A DNA stretch of 63,276 nucleotides, the filler included, from Basidiobolus ranarum (taxonomy: Eukaryota), in assembly GCA_040143965.1 (NCBI GenBank). It is 54 parts of 54 records of this genome, joined end to end, with 100 filler letters (N's around TTAATTAATTAA, not from the genome) between each part and the next. Parts side by side here need not be neighbours in the genome. Positions count along the whole stretch, not along the records: positions 32,937 to 34,009 come from JASJQH010006556.1; 53 more parts are not named here. One strand, 5' to 3'. Within the stretch, counting starts at the first letter, position 1, and every line of letters begins with the position of its first letter. The translations under genes and the position numbers were made by a program. Of this stretch, positions 5,899 to 58,600 are shown one piece after another. The notes under the pieces were generated by a model that did not search any database, was not told the DNA's origin, and saw only the letters and a program-made list of their open reading frames with translations.

Positions 5899-6977
5899 AA
5901 AAACAATACTGTCAAAAATTGGTACCCCTTGCTGTAAATCAACTCACTCTTGGATCAGCTTGCTTCAGCCAAGGTGTTTACAAAGATTGATTTAAGAGGT
6001 GCTTACAACCTTGTAAGAATCAAATCAGGAGACCAATGGAAAACGGCCTTTCAAACTTGCCATGGACACTATGAATGCAATGTCATGCCATTTGGACTTA
6101 TCAATGCCCCCGCAATCTTTCAACACATGATGAATGATATCTTCAGAGAGTATCTTGACCGATTTGTGGTAATCGACCTTGACAATATCTGGGTCTTTTC
6201 AAGCTCTCAAGAAGAACATAATATTCATGTTTCCCAAGTCCTAGAAAAGTTGAAATCTCTTGTTTCATGCTAAACTTGAGAAATGTGAATTTGATCAAGC
6301 ACAAGTTGAATTCCTTAGATATAACATCAGCCCATCAGGCATCTCCATGGACCCTATGAAGGTTGAATCTGTTCTGTCTTGTGATATTCCCAAGAATGTG
6401 AAGGATGTCAAATCTGTTGAAGTTCATTGTGTTTATCATACTTGTTGTTTATATCTTTATACACCTAACTATTTAATATATCACATATAAGTTACTTAAC
6501 ATTACTTAGTCAAATACCACTTAGCTGAAAATCGGAACATATATTATATATATATGTGATTAATGTGAGAAGTAGCATTTCCTTATTGGAAATTTCAAAC
6601 TTGTCCAAATTGCCCCAAATATAGCTCATTTTACTCCCACAGATGTTCTGAATACAACCCCAGTGTTAGTTTTCTGTATTTCCATCAAATGTATAAATGT
6701 TTTATTTCTGGACAATATACAATTATCTAGCAAAGCTATTAACAACTCCACTTTTCTAAAGTTTCTCCAAACAGCCCATATTTTCCCAATACAATCTTTC
6801 CTTGGATTTGCAAACTTTTACCAATGGTGTGTCAAGAACTACTTGTTGGCCCACTTTGTGCCCTGCAACAAGTCAATTGATGCAAAACAAACAGCAGAAT
6901 TGGTAACTCAAAACATCTTCTGCCTATATCAACTGCCTGAAACTATCAGCTCTGACCAAGGACCTCAGTTGGCTTCC
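5899..6977 (+). mobile_element. Ty3/gypsy (Tf2-like) pol: RT interrupted by a solo LTR, then deleted into integrase
   Basis: [29 protein letters not shown], decayed YLDD (DLDN), KDV|QSFLGFANFY, then AHFVPC...LPETISSDQGPQ. Confidence 0.92.
6415..6791 (+). mobile_element. Complete solo LTR-A (377 bp) with 5-bp TSD AAATC/CAATC
   Basis: TGTTG...CCCAATA. Removing the LTR and one TSD copy restores the gypsy KDVQSFLGF frame. Confidence 0.9.
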
Positions 6978-7730: not shown

Positions 7731-8255
7731 ATAGTTATTTGAAGTGCATGGTTCACCTGTCTTTCAGCGTACTTGTATCTAAAGGATTTTGATGTAAATT
7801 TATGTAACTACCCTAACTGAATAGTTATAATTAAGTAAAATTACCGCAATCAAAATGCTAATAAATTGATGATCTGGTTGTTTAATGATAGCCTGGTTGT
7901 TTGATGATAGCATGGTTATTTTACTGTACAATAGACCTCGGTGAAAGCTCAAGATTGATTATAATTCAAGCTTACTAAATGTTCCAGAACATATAAATAT
8001 AAAAGCTAGGGTTAGTCTACATCAAGAAACACCATCAAAAATGTTCCAATAATTTATCATCGTCAGCACTCTCCTAGCATTCTCCTCATGGTAACATTGG
8101 CCATGGAAAATCAATTACAGTCTACTCTATATCAAGTCACTGGTAGTGATATTGGNNNNNNNNNNNNNNNNNNNNNNNNNNNNNNNNNNNNNNNNNNNNT
8201 TAATTAATTAANNNNNNNNNNNNNNNNNNNNNNNNNNNNNNNNNNNNNNNNNNNN

Positions 8256-9333
8256 CCCCATCATAAGGTTTTGATGAAATCACCCAAATATAGATCATTT
8301 ATCCAATACCAAAGTACTCACCATAAAGCTGAAGGTATTACTGATATACTTGATGGATATCACTACCAGAATCAGAAAATTCAAGATTTCATTGAGAACA
8401 TGCATGATCATGCATATGCATTGGCTCTGGATGGTTTCTCACAAAAAAAATGTACCATTGGAAAGGCTTGCTGGCCAATAATTGTAATCAACTTAAATCT
8501 TCCTCCTTCTGAACAGTATAAGAGTCATAATATTTTGATACTATCCATAATATCTGGACCTAAATCACCAGTGCTTATAGATAGCTTCTTGGAGCCTTTG
8601 ATCATGCAATTTGAATGGTTATATAAGGGGGTTCTGATGGGTGAATATTTTATTACAGCTAATATCATTGTATGTATTGGTGACACTCCTACCATCATTA
8701 AACTTGGAGGTTTTTGCAGGCACAATACACTATCTTGTTGTAGATTTTGTCAAATCAATGGAGTTCACTCTAACAGGCATATGTGTTACTACTATCCAAA
8801 TACAACACTAAACTTCATGATTTTACCATCAAGAGCCCAGTTATATTTCAATATGATCACTGATATCTGTTCACCAAATAGTCAGTCTAACATCAAACTT
8901 GGTATTAGCCATAAGCCTAAGATTATATTGCCAAGGGGGATCAGCTCAAGCCAGAGCTTCCCATTAGGCACTATGCACTTACTAATCAACAACATTCTGA
9001 TACTACTTACTCAGCTATATAGTGGAAAATTTAATATGAATGAGCCATTTGAGATAGGATCAAAGTTTGAATCAATTGGGAAAATGCTTGAAAATGTCAA
9101 GATACCATCATATTTTACCAGGACTCCCATCAATATCCACTCATCTAGGTGTTTATTCAAATGCAAAGACTGGAAGTATTGGATTTGTATATATTCAAGT
9201 GGAATTTTGAAAAGATTTCTGCCTGATAAGTATTGGCAACATTGGGAGTTGTTTGTGGATATTGTTAATATATTCTTACGGCATCAACTCACATTGGCAG
9301 ATCTCAGGCAGATACAGCGACTGTGTGAAGATT
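8256..9333 (+). mobile_element. CACTA/EnSpm Tnp2 (Transposase_21-like) transposase core, longest open copy
   Basis: LALDGF, CWPII.INLNLPP, SGPKSP, DSFLEPL, GDTP, CCRFC, FPLGTMHL and FKCKDWK..LPDKYWQHW motifs typical of fungal tnp2. Confidence 0.88.
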
Positions 9334-9433
9334 NNNNNNNNNNNNNNNNNNNNNNNNNNNNNNNNNNNNNNNNNNNNTTAATTAATTAANNNNNNNNNNN
9401 NNNNNNNNNNNNNNNNNNNNNNNNNNNNNNNNN

Positions 9434-14276: not shown

Positions 14277-14624
14277 TGTTGAAATTAGCATTGTCTAAAC
14301 ATCTATGTAGTCATATAAAGATTAGTACTCAATTTTCTTGTAATTCACTAAGATATTTTCCATTCTTCTTGATCAGAATTTACTTAGAATATTTTTACCT
14401 ACTAAGAAGTTCTCAGATATATAGATTTTTCACACTTGTGCTAGAAGCCTCAAACTTTGCACCCTTGGCTCTGGAATCTTACTTAAGAAATTATAAACTT
14501 TAGTCTGTTTATATCTGGACCAAACTATAAATATCAACTTTCTACTCAATAGATCAATTAGTGCAAACCACCAATTCTTCTAATTATGCAAACCACTTCC
14601 AATGGGCTTCCAAATTCTTTGACA
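14277..14624 (+). mobile_element. LTR-B (copia-2), full length and diverged; a short extra 5' fragment lies at 14215-14247
   Basis: TGTTGAAATTAGC…TTTGACA. Homologous to 51772-52117. No TSD. Confidence 0.85.
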
Positions 14625-18220: not shown

Positions 18221-18745
18221 TGTTGAAAGTAGCATTGACTAAACACCTATATAGACATATATAGCTTAGTACTTAGTTATCTTATAATTCACTAAGATAT
18301 TATCCATTATTCTCAATCGGAATTTACTTTGAAAAATCTATATATCTAAGAACTTCTAAGTTGGTAAAAATATTCAAACTTGTGCTAGAAGCCCCAAACT
18401 TTGCACACATATGCCTGGGATCTTTCTTATGATACTCTACATGTTATTTTGCTTACATCTTGACAAACTAACATGTAGAATATGTTAAGGAAGGTCCCAG
18501 GATCATGTGTGCAAAGTTTGGGGCTTCTAGTACAAGTTTGAACAATCCATATATCTGAGAACTTCTAAGTTGGTATAAAATATTTTAAGTAAATTCCGAT
18601 TGTGAATAATTGATAATATCTTAGTGACTTATAAGATAACTAAGTACTAAGCTATATATGACTATATAGGTGTTTAGGCAATGCTAATTTCAACATTGTC
18701 AAGATAGAAGCAAAATTACATTTAGAATGTGTTGCAAAAGGTCCC
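18221..18745. mobile_element. Cluster of three LTR-B pieces: plus copy after PPT (18221-~18466), inverted copy (~18464-18695), third fragment (18696-18745)
   Basis: PPT AGTTGAGGGAGAG then TGTTGAAAG…; the minus copy ends …AATTTCAACA at 18695. Confidence 0.85.
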
Positions 18746-20021: not shown

Positions 20022-20185
20022 ACACATGTTCCTGGGACCTTCCTTAACATATTCTACATGTTAGTTTGCTTACATCTTGACAAAACTATAAATGTCAACT
20101 TTCTACTCAATAAATCAATAAGTGAAAACCACTAATTCCTCTAATTCTCGAAACCACTTCCAACAGGCTCCCAAATACTTTAACA
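20022..20185 (+). mobile_element. LTR-B 3' half, inserted antisense in copia-2 pol
   Basis: Ends CCCAAATACTTTAACA. Confidence 0.85.
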
Positions 20186-32315: not shown

Positions 32316-32836
32316 TTAATATTTGTTATAGTCATCATTTCCACCATGACCACCGCCATATTTTTTCCCATTGCCATCGTAATTATCATCATCATAATCG
32401 TCGCCACCGCCACCTCCGCCATATTTCTTTCCTTTTCCGCCTCCGCGATGATAGTCATCACCGTCATATTCATCATCATAATCACCACCACCACCACCAT
32501 ATTTCTTGCTTCCTCCCCTTCCATGCTTGTAGTTACCTCCGTCACCATGGCCATCGTATTCATCATCGTCATAGTCACTACTACCACCACCACCGTATTT
32601 CTTTCCTTTTCCATGACCGTCACCATGACCATCATATTCATCATCATCGTAGTCGCCATCACCACCATACTTTTTTCCATTGCCATTGCCATGACCGTCA
32701 CTGTCGTATTCATCATAATCATCGTGACCGCCACCACCTCCGTATTTCTTGGTTCTTCCACCACCGTCACCACCATAGCCTACCCCCTTATAGCTTGGAT
32801 CATATGAGCGTTCGAGTACATTAGCACTAATGGCTA
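32316..32836 (-). CDS. Secreted Gly/Asp/Tyr/Lys-rich repeat protein with six KKYGG units (5'-truncated; absent from the ORF track)
   Basis: 172 open codons from the contig end: …AISANVLERSYDPSYKGVGYGGDGGGRTKKYGGGGGHDDYDEY…GKKYGGGHGGNDDYNKY*. Synonymous third-position variation between repeats supports this frame. Confidence 0.85.
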
Positions 32837-33146
32837 NNNNNNNNNNNNNNNNNNNNNNNNNNNNNNNNNNNNNNNNNNNNTTAATTAATTAANNNNNNNN
32901 NNNNNNNNNNNNNNNNNNNNNNNNNNNNNNNNNNNNATCAAGAAATTACAAAAAAGTGAGAAGTCAGAACAAGCAAATCAGGTTTCAACCAAAGTGGAAG
33001 TTTTATTCATTTCTGCCCTGTCAGTGACCTCTGAACAAGATTGTAGGTTGTGGTATATTGATTTGGAGCCTCTCAACATTTCTCTAATCAAAAAAGCTGG
33101 TTTAAGACACTCAAATCTGACATAAACAAGAAAGTTATATGGGAGG

Positions 33147-33428
33147 TGTTGAAATTATTTAGGGAGAAATATTAGTCTGGCCAGGATTTGAACCTGGGAC
33201 CTCCTTCACTCTAACAAGGTGCTCTAGCCACTGAGCTACCAGTCCTTGTATGCTCTGCCTATATTGCTAGGGAACCTTAACCTAGTCTGTCAATGTATGG
33301 TACTTTAGCATTTCAGCTATAAAAGCAACTGATTGGCCTTAGACTTTGCGTTCAGATGCAGTCACCATCCTCCATGTTTTCCTCTTTGGGAATTACTGCT
33401 TGTACAACAAGTCGCCAGACTTTCAACA
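33147..33428. mobile_element. 282-bp solo LTR containing a tRNA-like sequence
   Basis: Perfect 8-bp TIR TGTTGAAA…TTTCAACA and TSD GGAGG/GGAGA. Absent from the homologous copy at about 50910. Confidence 0.85.
33174..33245 (-). tRNA. tRNA-like cloverleaf (probably pseudo-tRNA, Pro-like 3' half) inside the LTR
   Basis: GGACTGG-TA-GCTC-AGTGGCTA-GAGC-A-CCTTG-TTAGAGT-GAAGG-AGGTC-CCAGG-TTCAAAT-CCTGG-CCAGACT (72 nt). D and T stems are perfect, and A and B boxes are present. Confidence 0.75.
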
Positions 33429-34109
33429 GGAGATGGCCAGCCACTAGAAGCTCTGGGAGTGGGAGAAATGGAAGTGGATCTGTGGGGCATCTCTGGAGAC
33501 ATGTATTTGACACTGAAAAATGTGCTATATGTGCTTGGGATAGCAAAAAATTTGTTATCAGTGAGTAAAGCAACATCCAAGGGATATTTCTTTAATTTTG
33601 ATCAAAATGGCTTTACAATCAGGGATCAAAAAGGAAATTACGTAGCTTCTGGAGATAAGCAAAATAACTTGTATAAACTTCATTATATTAGGCCAATACA
33701 TGAACAAGTTAATACTGCCACAGCTGGAGAGACAGACTGGAAAATCTGGCATTGGAGATTGGATCATCTAGGAGCTGAAAATATGAGATATTTAATCAAA
33801 AACAAGTTGGTTTTGGGACTATATTTTGTAATTCTGCCAGATCTGGAGCTGTGTGAAGGTTACCTATATGGTAGGCAACACAGACAGCCATTTGTGGGCT
33901 CTGGAATGAGCAAAATAGATCAAAAATTGGGCCTGATACACTCAGATCTGTGTGGGCCAATGCAGACAAAATCCTTAGGTGAAAAAAGGTATTTTATGAC
34001 CTTTATTGANNNNNNNNNNNNNNNNNNNNNNNNNNNNNNNNNNNNNNNNNNNNTTAATTAATTAANNNNNNNNNNNNNNNNNNNNNNNNNNNNNNNNNNN
34101 NNNNNNNNN

Positions 34110-36011: not shown

Positions 36012-36350
36012 TGTTGAAATTAGCATTGCCTAAACACCTATATAGTCATATATAGCTTAGTACTTAGTTATCTTATAATCCACTAAGATATTATCAATTA
36101 TTATCAATTGGAATTTACTTGGAATATTTTTACCAACTTTGAAGTTCTCAGATATTTAGATTTTTCATACTTGTGCTAGAAGCCCCAAACTTTGCACACA
36201 TGTTCCTGGGACCTTCCTTAACACATTCTACACATTGATTTGCTTACATCTTGACAAAACTATAAATGTCAACTTTCTACATAATAAATCAATATGTGAA
36301 AATCACCAATTCCTCTCAATCTCCAAACCACTTCCAACAGGCTCCCAAAT
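36012..36350 (+). mobile_element. LTR-B inserted at the gypsy gag-pol junction
   Basis: TGTTGAAATTAGC start; near full length. Confidence 0.9.
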
Positions 36351-36455
36351 AATATNNNNNNNNNNNNNNNNNNNNNNNNNNNNNNNNNNNNNNNNNNNNT
36401 TAATTAATTAANNNNNNNNNNNNNNNNNNNNNNNNNNNNNNNNNNNNNNNNNNNN

Positions 36456-37528: not shown

Positions 37529-37628
37529 NNNNNNNNNNNNNNNNNNNNNNNNNNNNNNNNNNNNNNNNNNNNTTAATTAATTAANNNNNNNNNNNNNNNN
37601 NNNNNNNNNNNNNNNNNNNNNNNNNNNN

Positions 37629-38700
37629 GTTTTGATGAAATCACCCAAATATAGATCATTGATCCAATACCAAAGTACTCACTGTAAAGCTGATGGTATT
37701 ACTAATATACTTCATGGATTTCACAACCAGAATCTGACAAGTCAAGGTTTCTTTGAGGACATGCACGATCATGCATTTGCATTGGCTGTGGATGGTTTCT
37801 CACTAAACAAATTTACTACTGCAAAGGCTTCCTGGCCAATGATTTTGATTAACTTAAATCTTCCTCCTTCTGAACAATATAAGAGTCATAACAATTTGAT
37901 ACTATCCATCATATATGTACCTAAAACACCAGTGCTTATAGATAGCTTCTTGGAGCCTTTGATTGCAGAATTTCAACAGTTATCAAACGGGTTTAGATGG
38001 GTGATTATTTTTTTAAAGCCAATAGCATTGTATGTATTGGTGACACTTGTGCCATCAGTAACCTTGGAGGTTTTTGTGGGCACAATGCATTATCTTGCTG
38101 TAGATTTTGTCAAATCAATGAAGTTTACTCTAACGGGAATAAATTTTACTACTATCCAAATACAACACTAAACTTCATGAATTTGCCATCAAGAGCCTGG
38201 TCTGATTTCAACATAATCACTGACATCAATTTACAAATAGTAGTTTAATATCAAGCTTGGTATTAGACATAAGCCTAACATTATATTACTAAAGGGGATC
38301 AGCTGGAGCCAGAGCTTCCCATCAGGCACTATGCACTTACTATTCAACAGCATTGCAATACTACTTACTTAGCTATATGGTGGAAAATTCAATGTGAATG
38401 AGCCAGTTGAGATAGTATCAGAAGTTTGAATCAATTGGGAAAATGCTTGAAAATGTCAGGATACCATCATATTTTACCAGGACTCCCATCAATATCCACT
38501 CATCAAGGTGTTTGTTCAAATGGAAAGACTGGGTGTATTTGATTTTATATATTCAAGTGGAATTTTGAAAAGATTTCTGCCTGATAAGTATTGGCAACAT
38601 TGGGAGTTATTTGTCAATATTGTCAATATATTCTTATGCATCAACTCACGTTGGCAGATCTCAGGCAGATATAGCAATTGTGCCAAGCTTTTGTGCTTGA
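37629..38700 (+). mobile_element. CACTA transposase core, frameshifted
   Basis: Colinear homologue of 8256-9333. Confidence 0.88.
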
Positions 38701-42500: not shown

Positions 42501-43388
42501 GCTTTAGCAATGTAATCTTAGGTTTACAGCTAATACCAAGTTTGATGTTAGACTGACTATTTGGTGAATTGTTATCAGTGATCATGTTGATATCTGACCG
42601 GGCTCTTGATGGTAAAATCATGAAGTTTAGTGTTGTATTTGGATAGTAGTAATATGTATGCCTGTTAAAGTCCCTTGATTTGACAAAATCTACAGCAAGA
42701 TAGTGCATTGTGCCCGCAAAAACCCCCAAGTTTACTGATGGCAGGAGTGTCATCAATACATACAATGATATTAGCTTTAATGAAATATTCACCCATCTGA
42801 ACCCCATGATATAACCATTCAAATTCCGCAATCAAAGGCTCCAAGAAGCTATCTATAAGCACTGGCAATTTAGGTTTAGATATGATTGATTGTATCAAAA
42901 TATTATGACTTTTATACCATTTAGAAGAAGGAAGATTTAAGTTAATTAAAATTATTGGCCAGCAAGCCTTTCCAACGGTATATTTGTTTAGTGAGAAACC
43001 ATCCAGAGCCAATGCAAATGCATGATCATATGTGTTCTCAAAGAAACCTTGACTTTTCAGATTCTGGTAGTGATATCCATCAAGTATATTGGTAATACCA
43101 TCAGCTTTATGGTGAGTACTTTGGTATTGGATCAATGATCTATATTTGGGTGATTTCATCAAAACTTTAAGATGGGGAATCAATGGTATGTAAGCCAAAT
43201 ATGAACAATATTTACCTGATTCAGTGATTGCCAATTGTGTGCAAACAGTACATGACTTCAGGTTTTTCAGATCACCGGTGAAAGCCAAACAACCATTTGG
43301 ACATGAAGGCAGTTTAATTACTGAAGGATTATAAGTCATACAATTGACAAGTGTTTTCCACTTGTACCAGGTTTGTGGCAAGCAACAG
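42501..43388 (-). mobile_element. CACTA transposase (host of the end-B insertion)
   Basis: 238-aa ORF with CPNGC, LALDGF and GHNALSCCRFC. Confidence 0.9.
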
Positions 43389-43488
43389 NNNNNNNNNNNN
43401 NNNNNNNNNNNNNNNNNNNNNNNNNNNNNNNNTTAATTAATTAANNNNNNNNNNNNNNNNNNNNNNNNNNNNNNNNNNNNNNNNNNNN

Positions 43489-50412: not shown

Positions 50413-50512
50413 NNNNNNNNNNNNNNNNNNNNNNNNNNNNNNNNNNNNNNNNNNNNTTAATTAATTAANNNNNNNNNNNNNNNNNNNNNNNNNNNNNNNN
50501 NNNNNNNNNNNN

Positions 50513-51582
50513 CTTTGGAGTTTGTGGTAGCAAGGCTAATGGATCAACATCTCAGAAGTAAGAATTTGGAAAAAGAATCTGAGGAAGTGGCTCTTTTTGG
50601 AGCTGGAAAACATAGCTTTGGCAAGTACAAAGGTTACAAAAGAAGGAAACCAGGTTTATGCTATGGTTGTAACAAACCAGGACACCAGATAAAAGATTGC
50701 AAATTGAGAAATTGCAACAAAAATGAGAAGTCAGAACAAGCAAATCAGGTTTCAACCAAAGAGGAAGTTTTATTCATTTCTGCCCTATCAGTGACCTCTG
50801 AACAAGACTGTAGGTTGTGGTATATTGATTCTGGAGCCTCTCAACATTTCTCTAATCAAAAAAACTGGTTTAAGACAATCAAAACTGATATAAACAAGAA
50901 GGTTTATATCAGATGACCGGCCACTAGAAGGTCTGGGAGTGGTAGAAATTGAAGTGGATCTTGGGGGCATCTCTGCGGACATGTATTTGACACTGAAAAA
51001 TGTGCTATATGTGCCTGGTATAGCAAAACATTTGTTATCAGTGAGTAAAGCTACATCTGAGAGATATAGCTTTAATTTTGATTGAAATGGCTGTACAATA
51101 AGGGATCAAAAAGAGAATTATGTAGCTTCTGGAGCTAAGCAAAATAACTTGTATAAGCTTCATTATGTTAGGCCTATATATGCAAAAGTCAGTACTGCCA
51201 CAGCTGAAGAGATAGACTGGAAAATCTGGCATAAGAGATTGGGTCATCTAGGAGCTGAAAATATGAGAATTTAATCAAAAACAAGATGGTTTTGGGACCA
51301 AATTTGATAATTCCACTGGATTTGGAGCTATGTGAAGGCTGCCTATATGGTAGGCAACACAGACAGCCATTTATGGGCTCTGGAATGAGCAAAATGGATT
51401 ACAAATTGGGCCTGATTCACTCAGATCTGTGTGGCTCAATGCAGACAAAATCCTTAGGCAGAAAAAGGTAATTTATGACCTTTATTGATGATAAGACAAA
51501 GTATACTTGGGTGTACTTTCTGGCTAGTAAGGATGAAGCCTTTGATACCTTCAAGAAATTCAAAGCAATGGTGGAGACTGAA
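50513..51582 (+). mobile_element. Copia (probably copia-1) gag end, protease and integrase start
   Basis: CYGCNKPGHQIKDC, WYIDSGASQHF, IHSDLCG and FIDDKTKYTWV. Confidence 0.93.
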
Positions 51583-51682
51583 NNNNNNNNNNNNNNNNNN
51601 NNNNNNNNNNNNNNNNNNNNNNNNNNTTAATTAATTAANNNNNNNNNNNNNNNNNNNNNNNNNNNNNNNNNNNNNNNNNNNN

Positions 51683-52117
51683 ATATTAATCAAGCCATTA
51701 GCTAGACAGAAATTTGAGAAATTTAGACCTTTATCAGAATTGGTTTCTATGACTATTTAGTTAAGGGAGAGTGTTGAAATTAGCATTGCCTAAACACCTA
51801 TATAGTCATATATAGCTTAGTACTCAGTTATCTTATAATTCACAAAGATATTAACAATTATTCTAAATTGAAATTTACTTAAAATATTTTATCAACTTAG
51901 AAGTTCTCAGATATATATATTTTTCAAACTTGTGCTAGAAGCCCCAAACTTTGCACACATGTTCCTGGGACCTTCCTTAACATATTCCGCATGTTAGTTT
52001 GTTTACATCTTGACAAAACTATAAATGTCAACTTTCTACTCAGTAAATCAATAAGTGAAAACCATCAATTCCTCTATTTATGCAAGCACTTCCAACAGGC
52101 TCCCAAGTACTTTAACA
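51683..52117 (+). mobile_element. Copia-2 3' end: RNase H tail, PPT and complete 3' LTR-B (51772-52117), inserted in CACTA ORF2
   Basis: ILIKPLARQKFEKFR…*, then AGTTAAGGGAGAG|TGTTGAAAT…TTTAACA. Confidence 0.9.
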
Positions 52118-57531: not shown

Positions 57532-58600
57532 AGTAAGTAGTATTGTAATGTTGTTGGATAGTAAGTGCATAGTGCCTAATGGCAAGCTCTGGCTCCAGCT
57601 TATCCCCTTAACCAATATAATCTTAGGCTTATGGCTAATACCAAGTTTGATGTTAGACTGACTATTTGGTGAATTGACATCAGTGAGCATGTTGAATTCT
57701 GACCAGGCTCTTGAAGGTACAATGATGGAGTTTAGTTATGCGCTTGGATAGTAGTAATGTTTATGCTTGATAGAGTAAACTCCATTGATTTGACAGAATC
57801 TACAGCAAGATAGTGCATTGTGCCTGCAAAAACCTCCAAGTTTACTGAAGGCAGCAGTATCACCAATATATACAATGATACTACCTTTAACAAAATATTC
57901 ACCCATCTGAACCCCATTAGATGACCATTCAAATTCCACTATCAAAGGCTCCAAGAAGCTATCTATAAGCACTGGTGATTTAGGTCCAGATATGATGGAT
58001 ACTATCAAAGTATTATGATTCTTATACTGTTCAGAAGAAGTAAGATTTAGGTTAATTAAAATCATTAGCCAGCAAGCCTTTCCAATGGTATTTTTGTTTA
58101 GTAAGAAACCATCCAGAGCCAATGCAAATGCATGATCATATGTATTCACAAAGAAACCTTAACTTTTCACATTCAGGTAGTGATATCCATCAAGTATATT
58201 GGTAATACCATCAACTATATGGTGAGTACTTTATTATTGGATCAATGATCTATATTTGGGTGATTTCATCAAAACTTTAAGACAGGGAATCAATGGGGTG
58301 TAAGCCAAATATGAACAATATTTACCTGATTCAGTGATTGCCAATTGTGTGCAAACAGTACATGACATCAGGTTTTTCATATCACTGGCGAGAGCCAACA
58401 AACCATTTGGACATGAAGGTAGTTTAGTCACTTAAGGATTATAAGTCATAAAATTGACAAGTATTTTCCACTTATACCAGGTCTGTGGTAAGCAACAGTT
58501 GCCAATCAACTGTGGTAAAAGTGTAAGAAAACCAATAAACACCTGGTTGCTAAGATTCAATTGAACTCTCCCCTCCTTAATAATCAAAGCTGCTTCCTTT
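57532..58600 (-). mobile_element. CACTA transposase, decayed
   Basis: Homologous to 42501-43388 and 8256-9010. Confidence 0.88.

Follow-up and report, generated by a model that had tools for sequence, protein, structure and literature searches.

A candidate solo LTR of copia type with a tRNA-derived module interrupts an older copia element in Basidiobolus ranarum

The miniature LTR elements named Helenus (TRIMp3), whose LTRs contain tRNA-derived sequence (Kojima 2024, PMC10886601), are the closest described relatives in design of the locus analysed here. The parts of that account on which we draw count 113 Helenus families in rust fungi, 51 in bivalves and 40 in wasps (PMC10886601), so that the earlier note on this DNA, which had called such elements rare, overstated the case. 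In the same parts, solo LTRs are described as common, and the target-site duplications measure 5 bp in fungi and plants, with the fungal elements linked to copia, and 4 bp in animals, with a link to gypsy (PMC10886601). In rust fungi, tRNAscan-SE assigns many of the Helenus tRNA-like parts to Ser-AGA or Thr-AGT, the primer-binding site (PBS) was found not to be complementary to the tRNA-like part, and the action of the tRNA part as an internal Pol III promoter is proposed there rather than shown (PMC10886601). The same portion states that many non-miniature LTRs also contain tRNA-like pieces (PMC10886601). A literature search on tRNA-like solo LTRs, Pol III and TRIMp3 returned no on-topic work besides Kojima 2024, which a 2026 sugar-beet paper, in its accessible part, merely cites. 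Comparable designs are those of Cassandra, a plant miniature LTR element with a captured 5S rRNA-derived gene, and of the tRNA-derived SINEs (SINE2).

We analysed a window of 63,276 nucleotides, that is, the whole stretch of Basidiobolus ranarum DNA at hand with its filler, in which a copia element is interrupted by an insertion; the features of this locus are the following.

33147-33428, minus strand (that of the tRNA-like part): insertion of 282 bp, read as the solo LTR of a copia-type element
33147-33154, plus strand: terminal inverted repeat arm TGTTGAAA
33421-33428, plus strand: terminal inverted repeat arm TTTCAACA
33142-33146: left copy of the target-site duplication, GGAGG, present once in the paralogue
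33429-33433: right copy of the target-site duplication, GGAGA, present once in the paralogue
32937-33146, plus strand: host copia fragment left of the insertion, with the end of gag and the first half of the protease/Pol_BBD, decayed
33429-34009, plus strand: host copia fragment right of the insertion, with Pol_BBD profile positions 32-81 and then a gag_pre-integrs domain (Pfam)
50707-51488, plus strand: paralogous copia copy, with the empty site near 50905-50915 (blast, Pfam)

The two arms occupy the very ends of the insertion and form a perfect 8-nt inverted repeat with TG..CA ends, and the flanking GGAGG and GGAGA are identical at four of five positions, which could alternatively be read as a 4-bp duplication (GGAG) plus one additional base. 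When the 282 bp were excised and the flanks joined, blast within the window returned a single block (query 5-791) against the paralogue at 89.2% identity, and the paralogue sequence ...tttatatcagatgacc... runs through the insertion site without the insert. Because the paralogous site is empty, the limits of the insertion are exact to the base, and 33147-33428 is a genuine insertion. It breaks the Pol_BBD (protease) domain of copia, for which Pfam finds profile positions 1-31 in the paralogue piece and the remainder, 32-81, right of the insert, and the reading frame over the site gives Y-M-G and then G-D-G. The earlier note had described a 282-bp insertion with perfect 8-bp inverted ends and a 4-of-5 duplication, a split copia protease and a homologue at about 50910 lacking the insertion, and our alignments bore it out on each point. 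The copia at the empty site, taken over its whole extent (50461-52117), carries gag, protease and the start of integrase and then, within about 300 bp (partly masked), a polypurine tract (PPT) and a 3' LTR; it is an internally deleted, non-autonomous copia derivative.

The insertion holds a tRNA-like module, which together with the other motifs of the 282 bp is laid out as follows.

33173-33245, minus strand: tRNA-like module of 73 nt, with AGA at the anticodon position, a 5-nt variable region and two mismatched stem pairs
33238-33228, minus strand: A box TAGCTCAGTGG, tRNA positions 8-18
33194-33184, minus strand: B box GGTTCAAATCC, tRNA positions 52-62
33147-33172, minus strand: 26-nt tail after the module, ATATTTCTCCCTAAATAATTTCAACA, resembling the 3' end CTCCCAAATACTTTAACA of a resident LTR family, family A
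33318-33325, plus strand: TATAAAAG, a perfect TATA-type motif facing opposite to the module
33332-33336, minus strand (that of the tRNA-like part): CCAAT motif (GGCCAATCAG)

The single tRNA that ARAGORN predicts in the window occupies 33173-33245 (minus strand; anticodon aga), and Rfam RF00005 scored the module at 53.5 bits (gathering score 29; E=1.1e-8 for the whole window), which remained the sole tRNA match in the 63 kb even at E<=1. In the Rfam alignment the D stem (4 bp) and the T stem (5 bp) are perfect and the loop reads TTAGAGT, the pairs A3.A70 and G31.G39 are non-canonical, and the variable region is 5 nt long, with no long variable arm. The usual consensus is TRGCNNAGTGG for the A box and GGTTCGANTCC for the B box, and both boxes of the module match it. 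The isolated 73 nt fold as a cloverleaf with an ordinary folding energy (z = -0.21). On its own strand the module covers bases 184-256 of the 282, after which comes a non-repetitive end of 26 nt. No T4 was found from the module to the edge of the insertion, and the first T-run of at least four downstream is TTTTTT near 33095, in the flank and 78 nt away; the sole T4 of the tRNA strand is the complement of TATAAAAG at 33324-33321 (LTR positions 105-108), upstream of the module. We considered a genuine tRNA gene and rejected it. The 5-nt variable region makes the module body unfit for a serine tRNA despite its AGA anticodon, and this discrepancy, the mismatched A3.A70 and G31.G39 pairs and the lack of a close T-run together identify a promoter-like tRNA-derived module, not a credible tRNA gene. 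The earlier note had already drawn attention to the A and B boxes, the perfect D and T stems, the TTAGAGT loop, the missing T4 before the LTR edge, the TATA motif facing the other way and the unlikelihood of an AGA/Ser reading, all of which the alignment and scans uphold; the module that it placed at 33174-33245 stands as well, with its length corrected from 72 to 73 nt (33173-33245) by the discriminator base.

The termini of the insertion link it to LTRs that reside in the same window.

51772-52117, plus strand: 3' LTR copy of family A, preceded by the PPT TATTTAGTTAAGGGAGAG
14277-14624, 36012-36355, 18221-18467, 18695-18463 (minus strand), 20022-20185 and 22271-22208 (minus strand): other copies of family A
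22271-22194, minus strand: end of a family A 5' LTR, then the PBS-like site GGTTATGAACCCAG, followed by a copia gag ORF at 22096-21665
6415-6791, plus strand: solo LTR of copia family B, TGTTGAAGTT...CCCAATA, flanked by AAATC and CAATC

The first 11 nt of the insertion, TGTTGAAATTA, recur exactly at four other sites of the window, each of which starts a repeat of about 346 bp belonging to family A, so that the insertion and the family A LTR start are identical at 11 of 11 nt. Family A is a copia LTR, as seen from both of its borders. At one, its last 64 nt (22271-22208, minus strand) are followed by GGTTATGAACCCAG and then by a Retrotran_gag_2 ORF (22271-21665 overall); at the other, a PPT precedes the LTR, and the copies at 51754 and 18203 are preceded by the purine-rich TATTTAGTT[A/G]AGGGAGAG. 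The PBS-like site (22209-22194, minus strand) is of the GGTTATGA... type and contains ATG; it may be where the anticodon-loop region of initiator tRNA-Met primes, in the half-tRNA manner known for some copia lineages. Family B, with an LTR of about 369 bp and 12 further blast matches in the window besides the query copy, starts with TGTTGAAG and follows a PPT like that of family A and the end of a copia pol ORF. The 5-bp flanks of its solo LTR at 6415-6791 match at four of five positions; that copy is nested in a gypsy pol reading frame and has no tRNA-like part.

Families A and B both start with TGTTGAA, and ends of the form TGTTG...CAACA are typical of Ty1/copia LTRs. The insertion likewise has TG..CA ends, which form a short TGTTG...CAACA-type inverted repeat, together with a 5-bp duplication, and it has in common with both families a TGTTGAA... 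start, an ...AACA end and the duplication length; with family A the far end is similar in addition to the 11 identical terminal bases. The insertion thus carries the terminal signature and the duplication length of the copia elements in the same DNA. In contrast, the LTR bodies are not homologous and neither family has a tRNA-like part: beyond the termini, nhmmer run with its filters off gave no match to family A, and the 13 blast rows obtained with family B all lie outside the insertion. Shared termini with unrelated bodies are what would be expected if a related integrase had acted on a different LTR. This terminal comparison strengthens the solo-LTR reading on sequence grounds. The earlier note had proposed that reading, which in part stands and is now better founded, by termini of a copia family, a duplication length that fits copia, and the absence of an internal repeat and of SINE features. 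No direct repeat longer than 11 nt was found inside the 282 bp, which are therefore not a whole miniature element.

The orientation of the module within its LTR was assessed against the family A ends. When its last 8 nt were kept constant, the tail that follows the module resembled the family A 3' end (CTCCC-AAATA-TTT-AACA) at p=0.0055 in 2000 shuffles, and the corresponding test of a 3' end in the opposite orientation, with the outer 8 nt fixed, gave p=0.064; the tests of the 5' end with 8 nt fixed were not significant (p 0.33-0.76). The 11-of-11 match sits at the 5' end of family A, which would make the module antisense, and the TATA-type motif facing opposite to the module likewise counts against a sense reading. 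The termini are mildly informative, and on these comparisons the tRNA-like part probably lies in sense orientation, a placement that we favour mildly.

Searches for relatives of the insertion gave nothing further within the window. No second copy of the 282 bp was found in the 63 kb (blastn; Rfam tRNA at E<=1), nor a paired LTR, PBS or PPT belonging to this LTR, and the only PBS-like or PPT junctions in the window that could mark an internal region were those of the resident copia elements. Among the 11 pairs of TGTTGAAA...TTTCAACA ends checked, the insertion alone had matching flanks. Exact patterns taken from the module and its tail had 0 matches in viral, metagenome and prokaryote genome contigs; such scans miss any copy that differs at a specified base, and the null is weak because these collections are unlikely to include the host. 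A second perfect inverted 8-mer pair lies inside the insertion (AGTCTGGC at 33174-33181 and GCCAGACT at 33414-33421), where one arm forms the module's 3' acceptor strand and the other follows directly on the far terminal repeat; this pair could be chance.

The surroundings of the insertion are repeat-rich. The window has a CpG observed/expected ratio of 0.20, with TpG at 1.29, CpA at 1.31 and a G+C content of 35.7%, and the CpG depletion suggests heavy cytosine methylation of a region that is almost wholly transposon debris. Many decayed DNA transposon copies resembling KDZ/Transposase_21 are present (8208-9389, 37581-38171, 42665-43432, 57736-58158 and others), and the only database relative found for the KDZ-like ORF was a 698-aa protein with 62% identity, carrying PF02992 and PF06869. 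Adjoining the truncated host copia, the segment 32220-32888 has four frames without stop codons and a 78-bp tandem unit at 32539-32701, one minus frame encoding repeats rich in Gly, Tyr, Asp and His (KKYGGGG...DYDDDEYDGHG); the segment represents a minisatellite or else a gene of low complexity. Paired runs of 44 N's recur about every 1,170 bases across the window. As for the retroelements, the copia reverse transcriptase has best named relatives at most 53% identical, from plants, oomycetes and yeasts, with one further match at 76%, and the best named match of the gypsy proteins is Smittium culicis at 46-49%; overall, the best named relatives of the retroelement proteins, from fungi, oomycetes and plants, are 46-53% identical, and an Atlas look-up of these proteins gave generic RVT_2 clusters only.

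Compared with Helenus as described in the parts of PMC10886601 used here, the insertion agrees in having tRNA-derived sequence with A and B boxes inside an LTR, where it is unlikely to be a working tRNA. It also agrees in being a solo LTR with a short duplication, the GGAGG/GGAGA match at four of five positions falling within the 4-6 bp of Helenus, and its 282 bp lie within the LTR lengths of 120 to 323 bp reported in those parts (PMC10886601). The AGA anticodon recurs as well, Ser-AGA being given there for several rust-fungus families (PMC10886601). Every Helenus feature examined (module, ends and duplication) is present in the insertion and none is missing, in a comparison made with the published description. 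The difference is that we have a solo LTR only, whereas Helenus is defined, in the portion consulted, by two LTRs, a PBS and a PPT within a total of less than about 1 kb (PMC10886601). On this analysis a Helenus-type reading is plausible. Cassandra is similar in that the LTR of a non-autonomous element houses a small-RNA gene and with it an internal Pol III promoter, but its captured gene derives from 5S rRNA whereas that of the insertion is tRNA-like. Rfam returned no 5S match, either for 33000-33600 at E<=10 or for the window at E<=1, and the Cassandra/Ajax feature is accordingly absent. Moreover, the Cassandra LTR has a conserved Pol III terminator, by the part of PMC10886601 used here, whereas no T-run follows the module in the insertion. 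Like SINE2 elements, the insertion is a short mobile element without coding sequence whose Pol III promoter module derives from a tRNA; it differs from them in that the module is not 5', no tail follows and the ends are of LTR type.

We lean towards the explanation that the 282 bp are a solo copia-type LTR with a tRNA-derived module, most likely of the Helenus (TRIMp3) kind. An LTR element of Ty1/copia type, dependent on copia, would have integrated into the protease region of an older copia and made a 5-bp duplication, one base of which would have changed since; recombination between its LTRs would then have collapsed it to a solo LTR that went on decaying, as we infer from the changed duplication base, from the two tRNA pairs that no longer match and from the CpG depletion (observed/expected 0.16 against 0.20 in the window). 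The parent may have been a short non-autonomous element moved in trans by the integrase and reverse transcriptase of resident copia. In the active family the tRNA-derived module may have served as an internal Pol III promoter, by analogy with the proposal for Helenus. In sense orientation the module would stand 26 nt from the U5 end and the Pol III transcript would run, as is needed of a genomic RNA, without hindrance into the PBS and the internal region, a read-through that requires the absence of a T-run between module and LTR edge. Should T4 terminate transcription here, the upstream T4 would halt the Pol III transcript in the 3' LTR before the terminal repeat. A self-encoded primer, which the earlier note had offered as one use of the module, is not borne out: sites complementary to the module 3' end number 11 against 7.8 expected, none outside the insertion comes closer than 3 mismatches in the window, and a search of the window for a primer site complementary to the anticodon arm gave nothing beyond chance. 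The earlier note had further suggested that the module may act as a TFIIIC insulator and may derive from tRNA-Pro. Counted against the explanation as a whole are the single copy in 63 kb, the two broken stem pairs, the opposing TATAAAAG and the lack of body homology.

The same termini would also suit the solo LTR of an ordinary copia, autonomous or large and non-autonomous, in which the tRNA fragment is a passenger lying antisense in U3 with no role in mobility, and Pol II transcription starts from TATAAAAG on the plus strand. In that orientation the 11-of-11 identity to the family A 5' end falls into place, the TATA-type motif at 33318-33325 stands 103 nt before the LTR end, and 282 bp is near the size of the resident LTRs (346 and 369 bp); in addition, 'not a few' Repbase LTRs hold tRNA-like pieces, only the miniature ones being named Helenus, according to the portion of PMC10886601 used here. 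However, the module is no fragment but a complete cloverleaf in which neither promoter box is broken, the subterminal likeness to the 3' end of family A speaks for a module in sense orientation (p=0.0055 versus 0.064), and the window holds no coding element with this LTR, and we regard an ordinary copia LTR as rather unlikely while giving it real weight. It is a good deal less probable that the module is a feature of this copy and not of a family, having arrived as a one-off secondary insertion of a retroposed tRNA or pre-tRNA or of the head of a tRNA-derived SINE. A direct repeat, AATAT, does flank a 92-nt block made of 16 nt and the tRNA-like part, and an origin of Helenus by SINE insertion into an LTR has been proposed in the part of PMC10886601 drawn on, but a repeat of 5 nt carries little weight where the DNA is AT-rich, neither a SINE body or tail nor an A-rich or simple-repeat tail follows the module, and the remaining 26 nt resemble a copia LTR end.

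The perfect 8-nt inverted repeats, the second inverted 8-mer pair just inside them (AGTCTGGC, 33174-33181; GCCAGACT, 33414-33421) and the small size without coding capacity would also fit a miniature DNA transposon of MITE type, with a 4-5 bp duplication and a tRNA-derived segment, moved by a DDE transposase. Yet the inverted repeat extends over just 8 nt, its ends are those of resident copia LTRs that adjoin a PPT or a PBS-like site and gag, the TGTTG...CAACA form is one typical of Ty1/copia LTRs, and neither a second copy nor a related transposase end occurs in the window; copia-type termini on an unrelated body argue against a MITE, which we hold to be slightly more improbable still than a secondary insertion. 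A tRNA-derived SINE is contradicted by the anatomy and was rejected: tRNA-like sequence with A and B boxes is indeed present, but the module, read along its own strand, does not lie at the 5' end and begins only at base 184 of 282, the tail is absent, and a short duplication of fixed size surrounds ends that form a TG..CA inverted repeat. With no tail and such a module start the insertion is not a SINE, and we give that reading hardly any credence. Of the Helenus-type solo LTR that we prefer, a more specific form is possible, if doubtful: an undescribed Helenus-like lineage mobilised by copia in a poorly sampled eukaryote, with a whole tRNA-derived Pol III unit abutting the U5 attachment end, a transcription start about 100 nt before the PBS and no terminator in the LTR.

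The class, its solo LTRs and its copia link were described in 2024, by the parts of PMC10886601 used here, and the copy at this locus is single and decayed, so the finding opens no new question. If the undescribed-lineage reading is true, it would extend the design of an LTR with a small-RNA promoter to a new host group, in a layout that can be compared with that of Cassandra. If the family reading is true, the locus would add a further case of an LTR element using a borrowed Pol III promoter of tRNA origin, here with termini that link it to identifiable resident copia partners; tRNA predictors would over-count tRNA genes in such genomes, and LTRs of this kind would scatter possible TFIIIC/Pol III sites through repeat-rich DNA.
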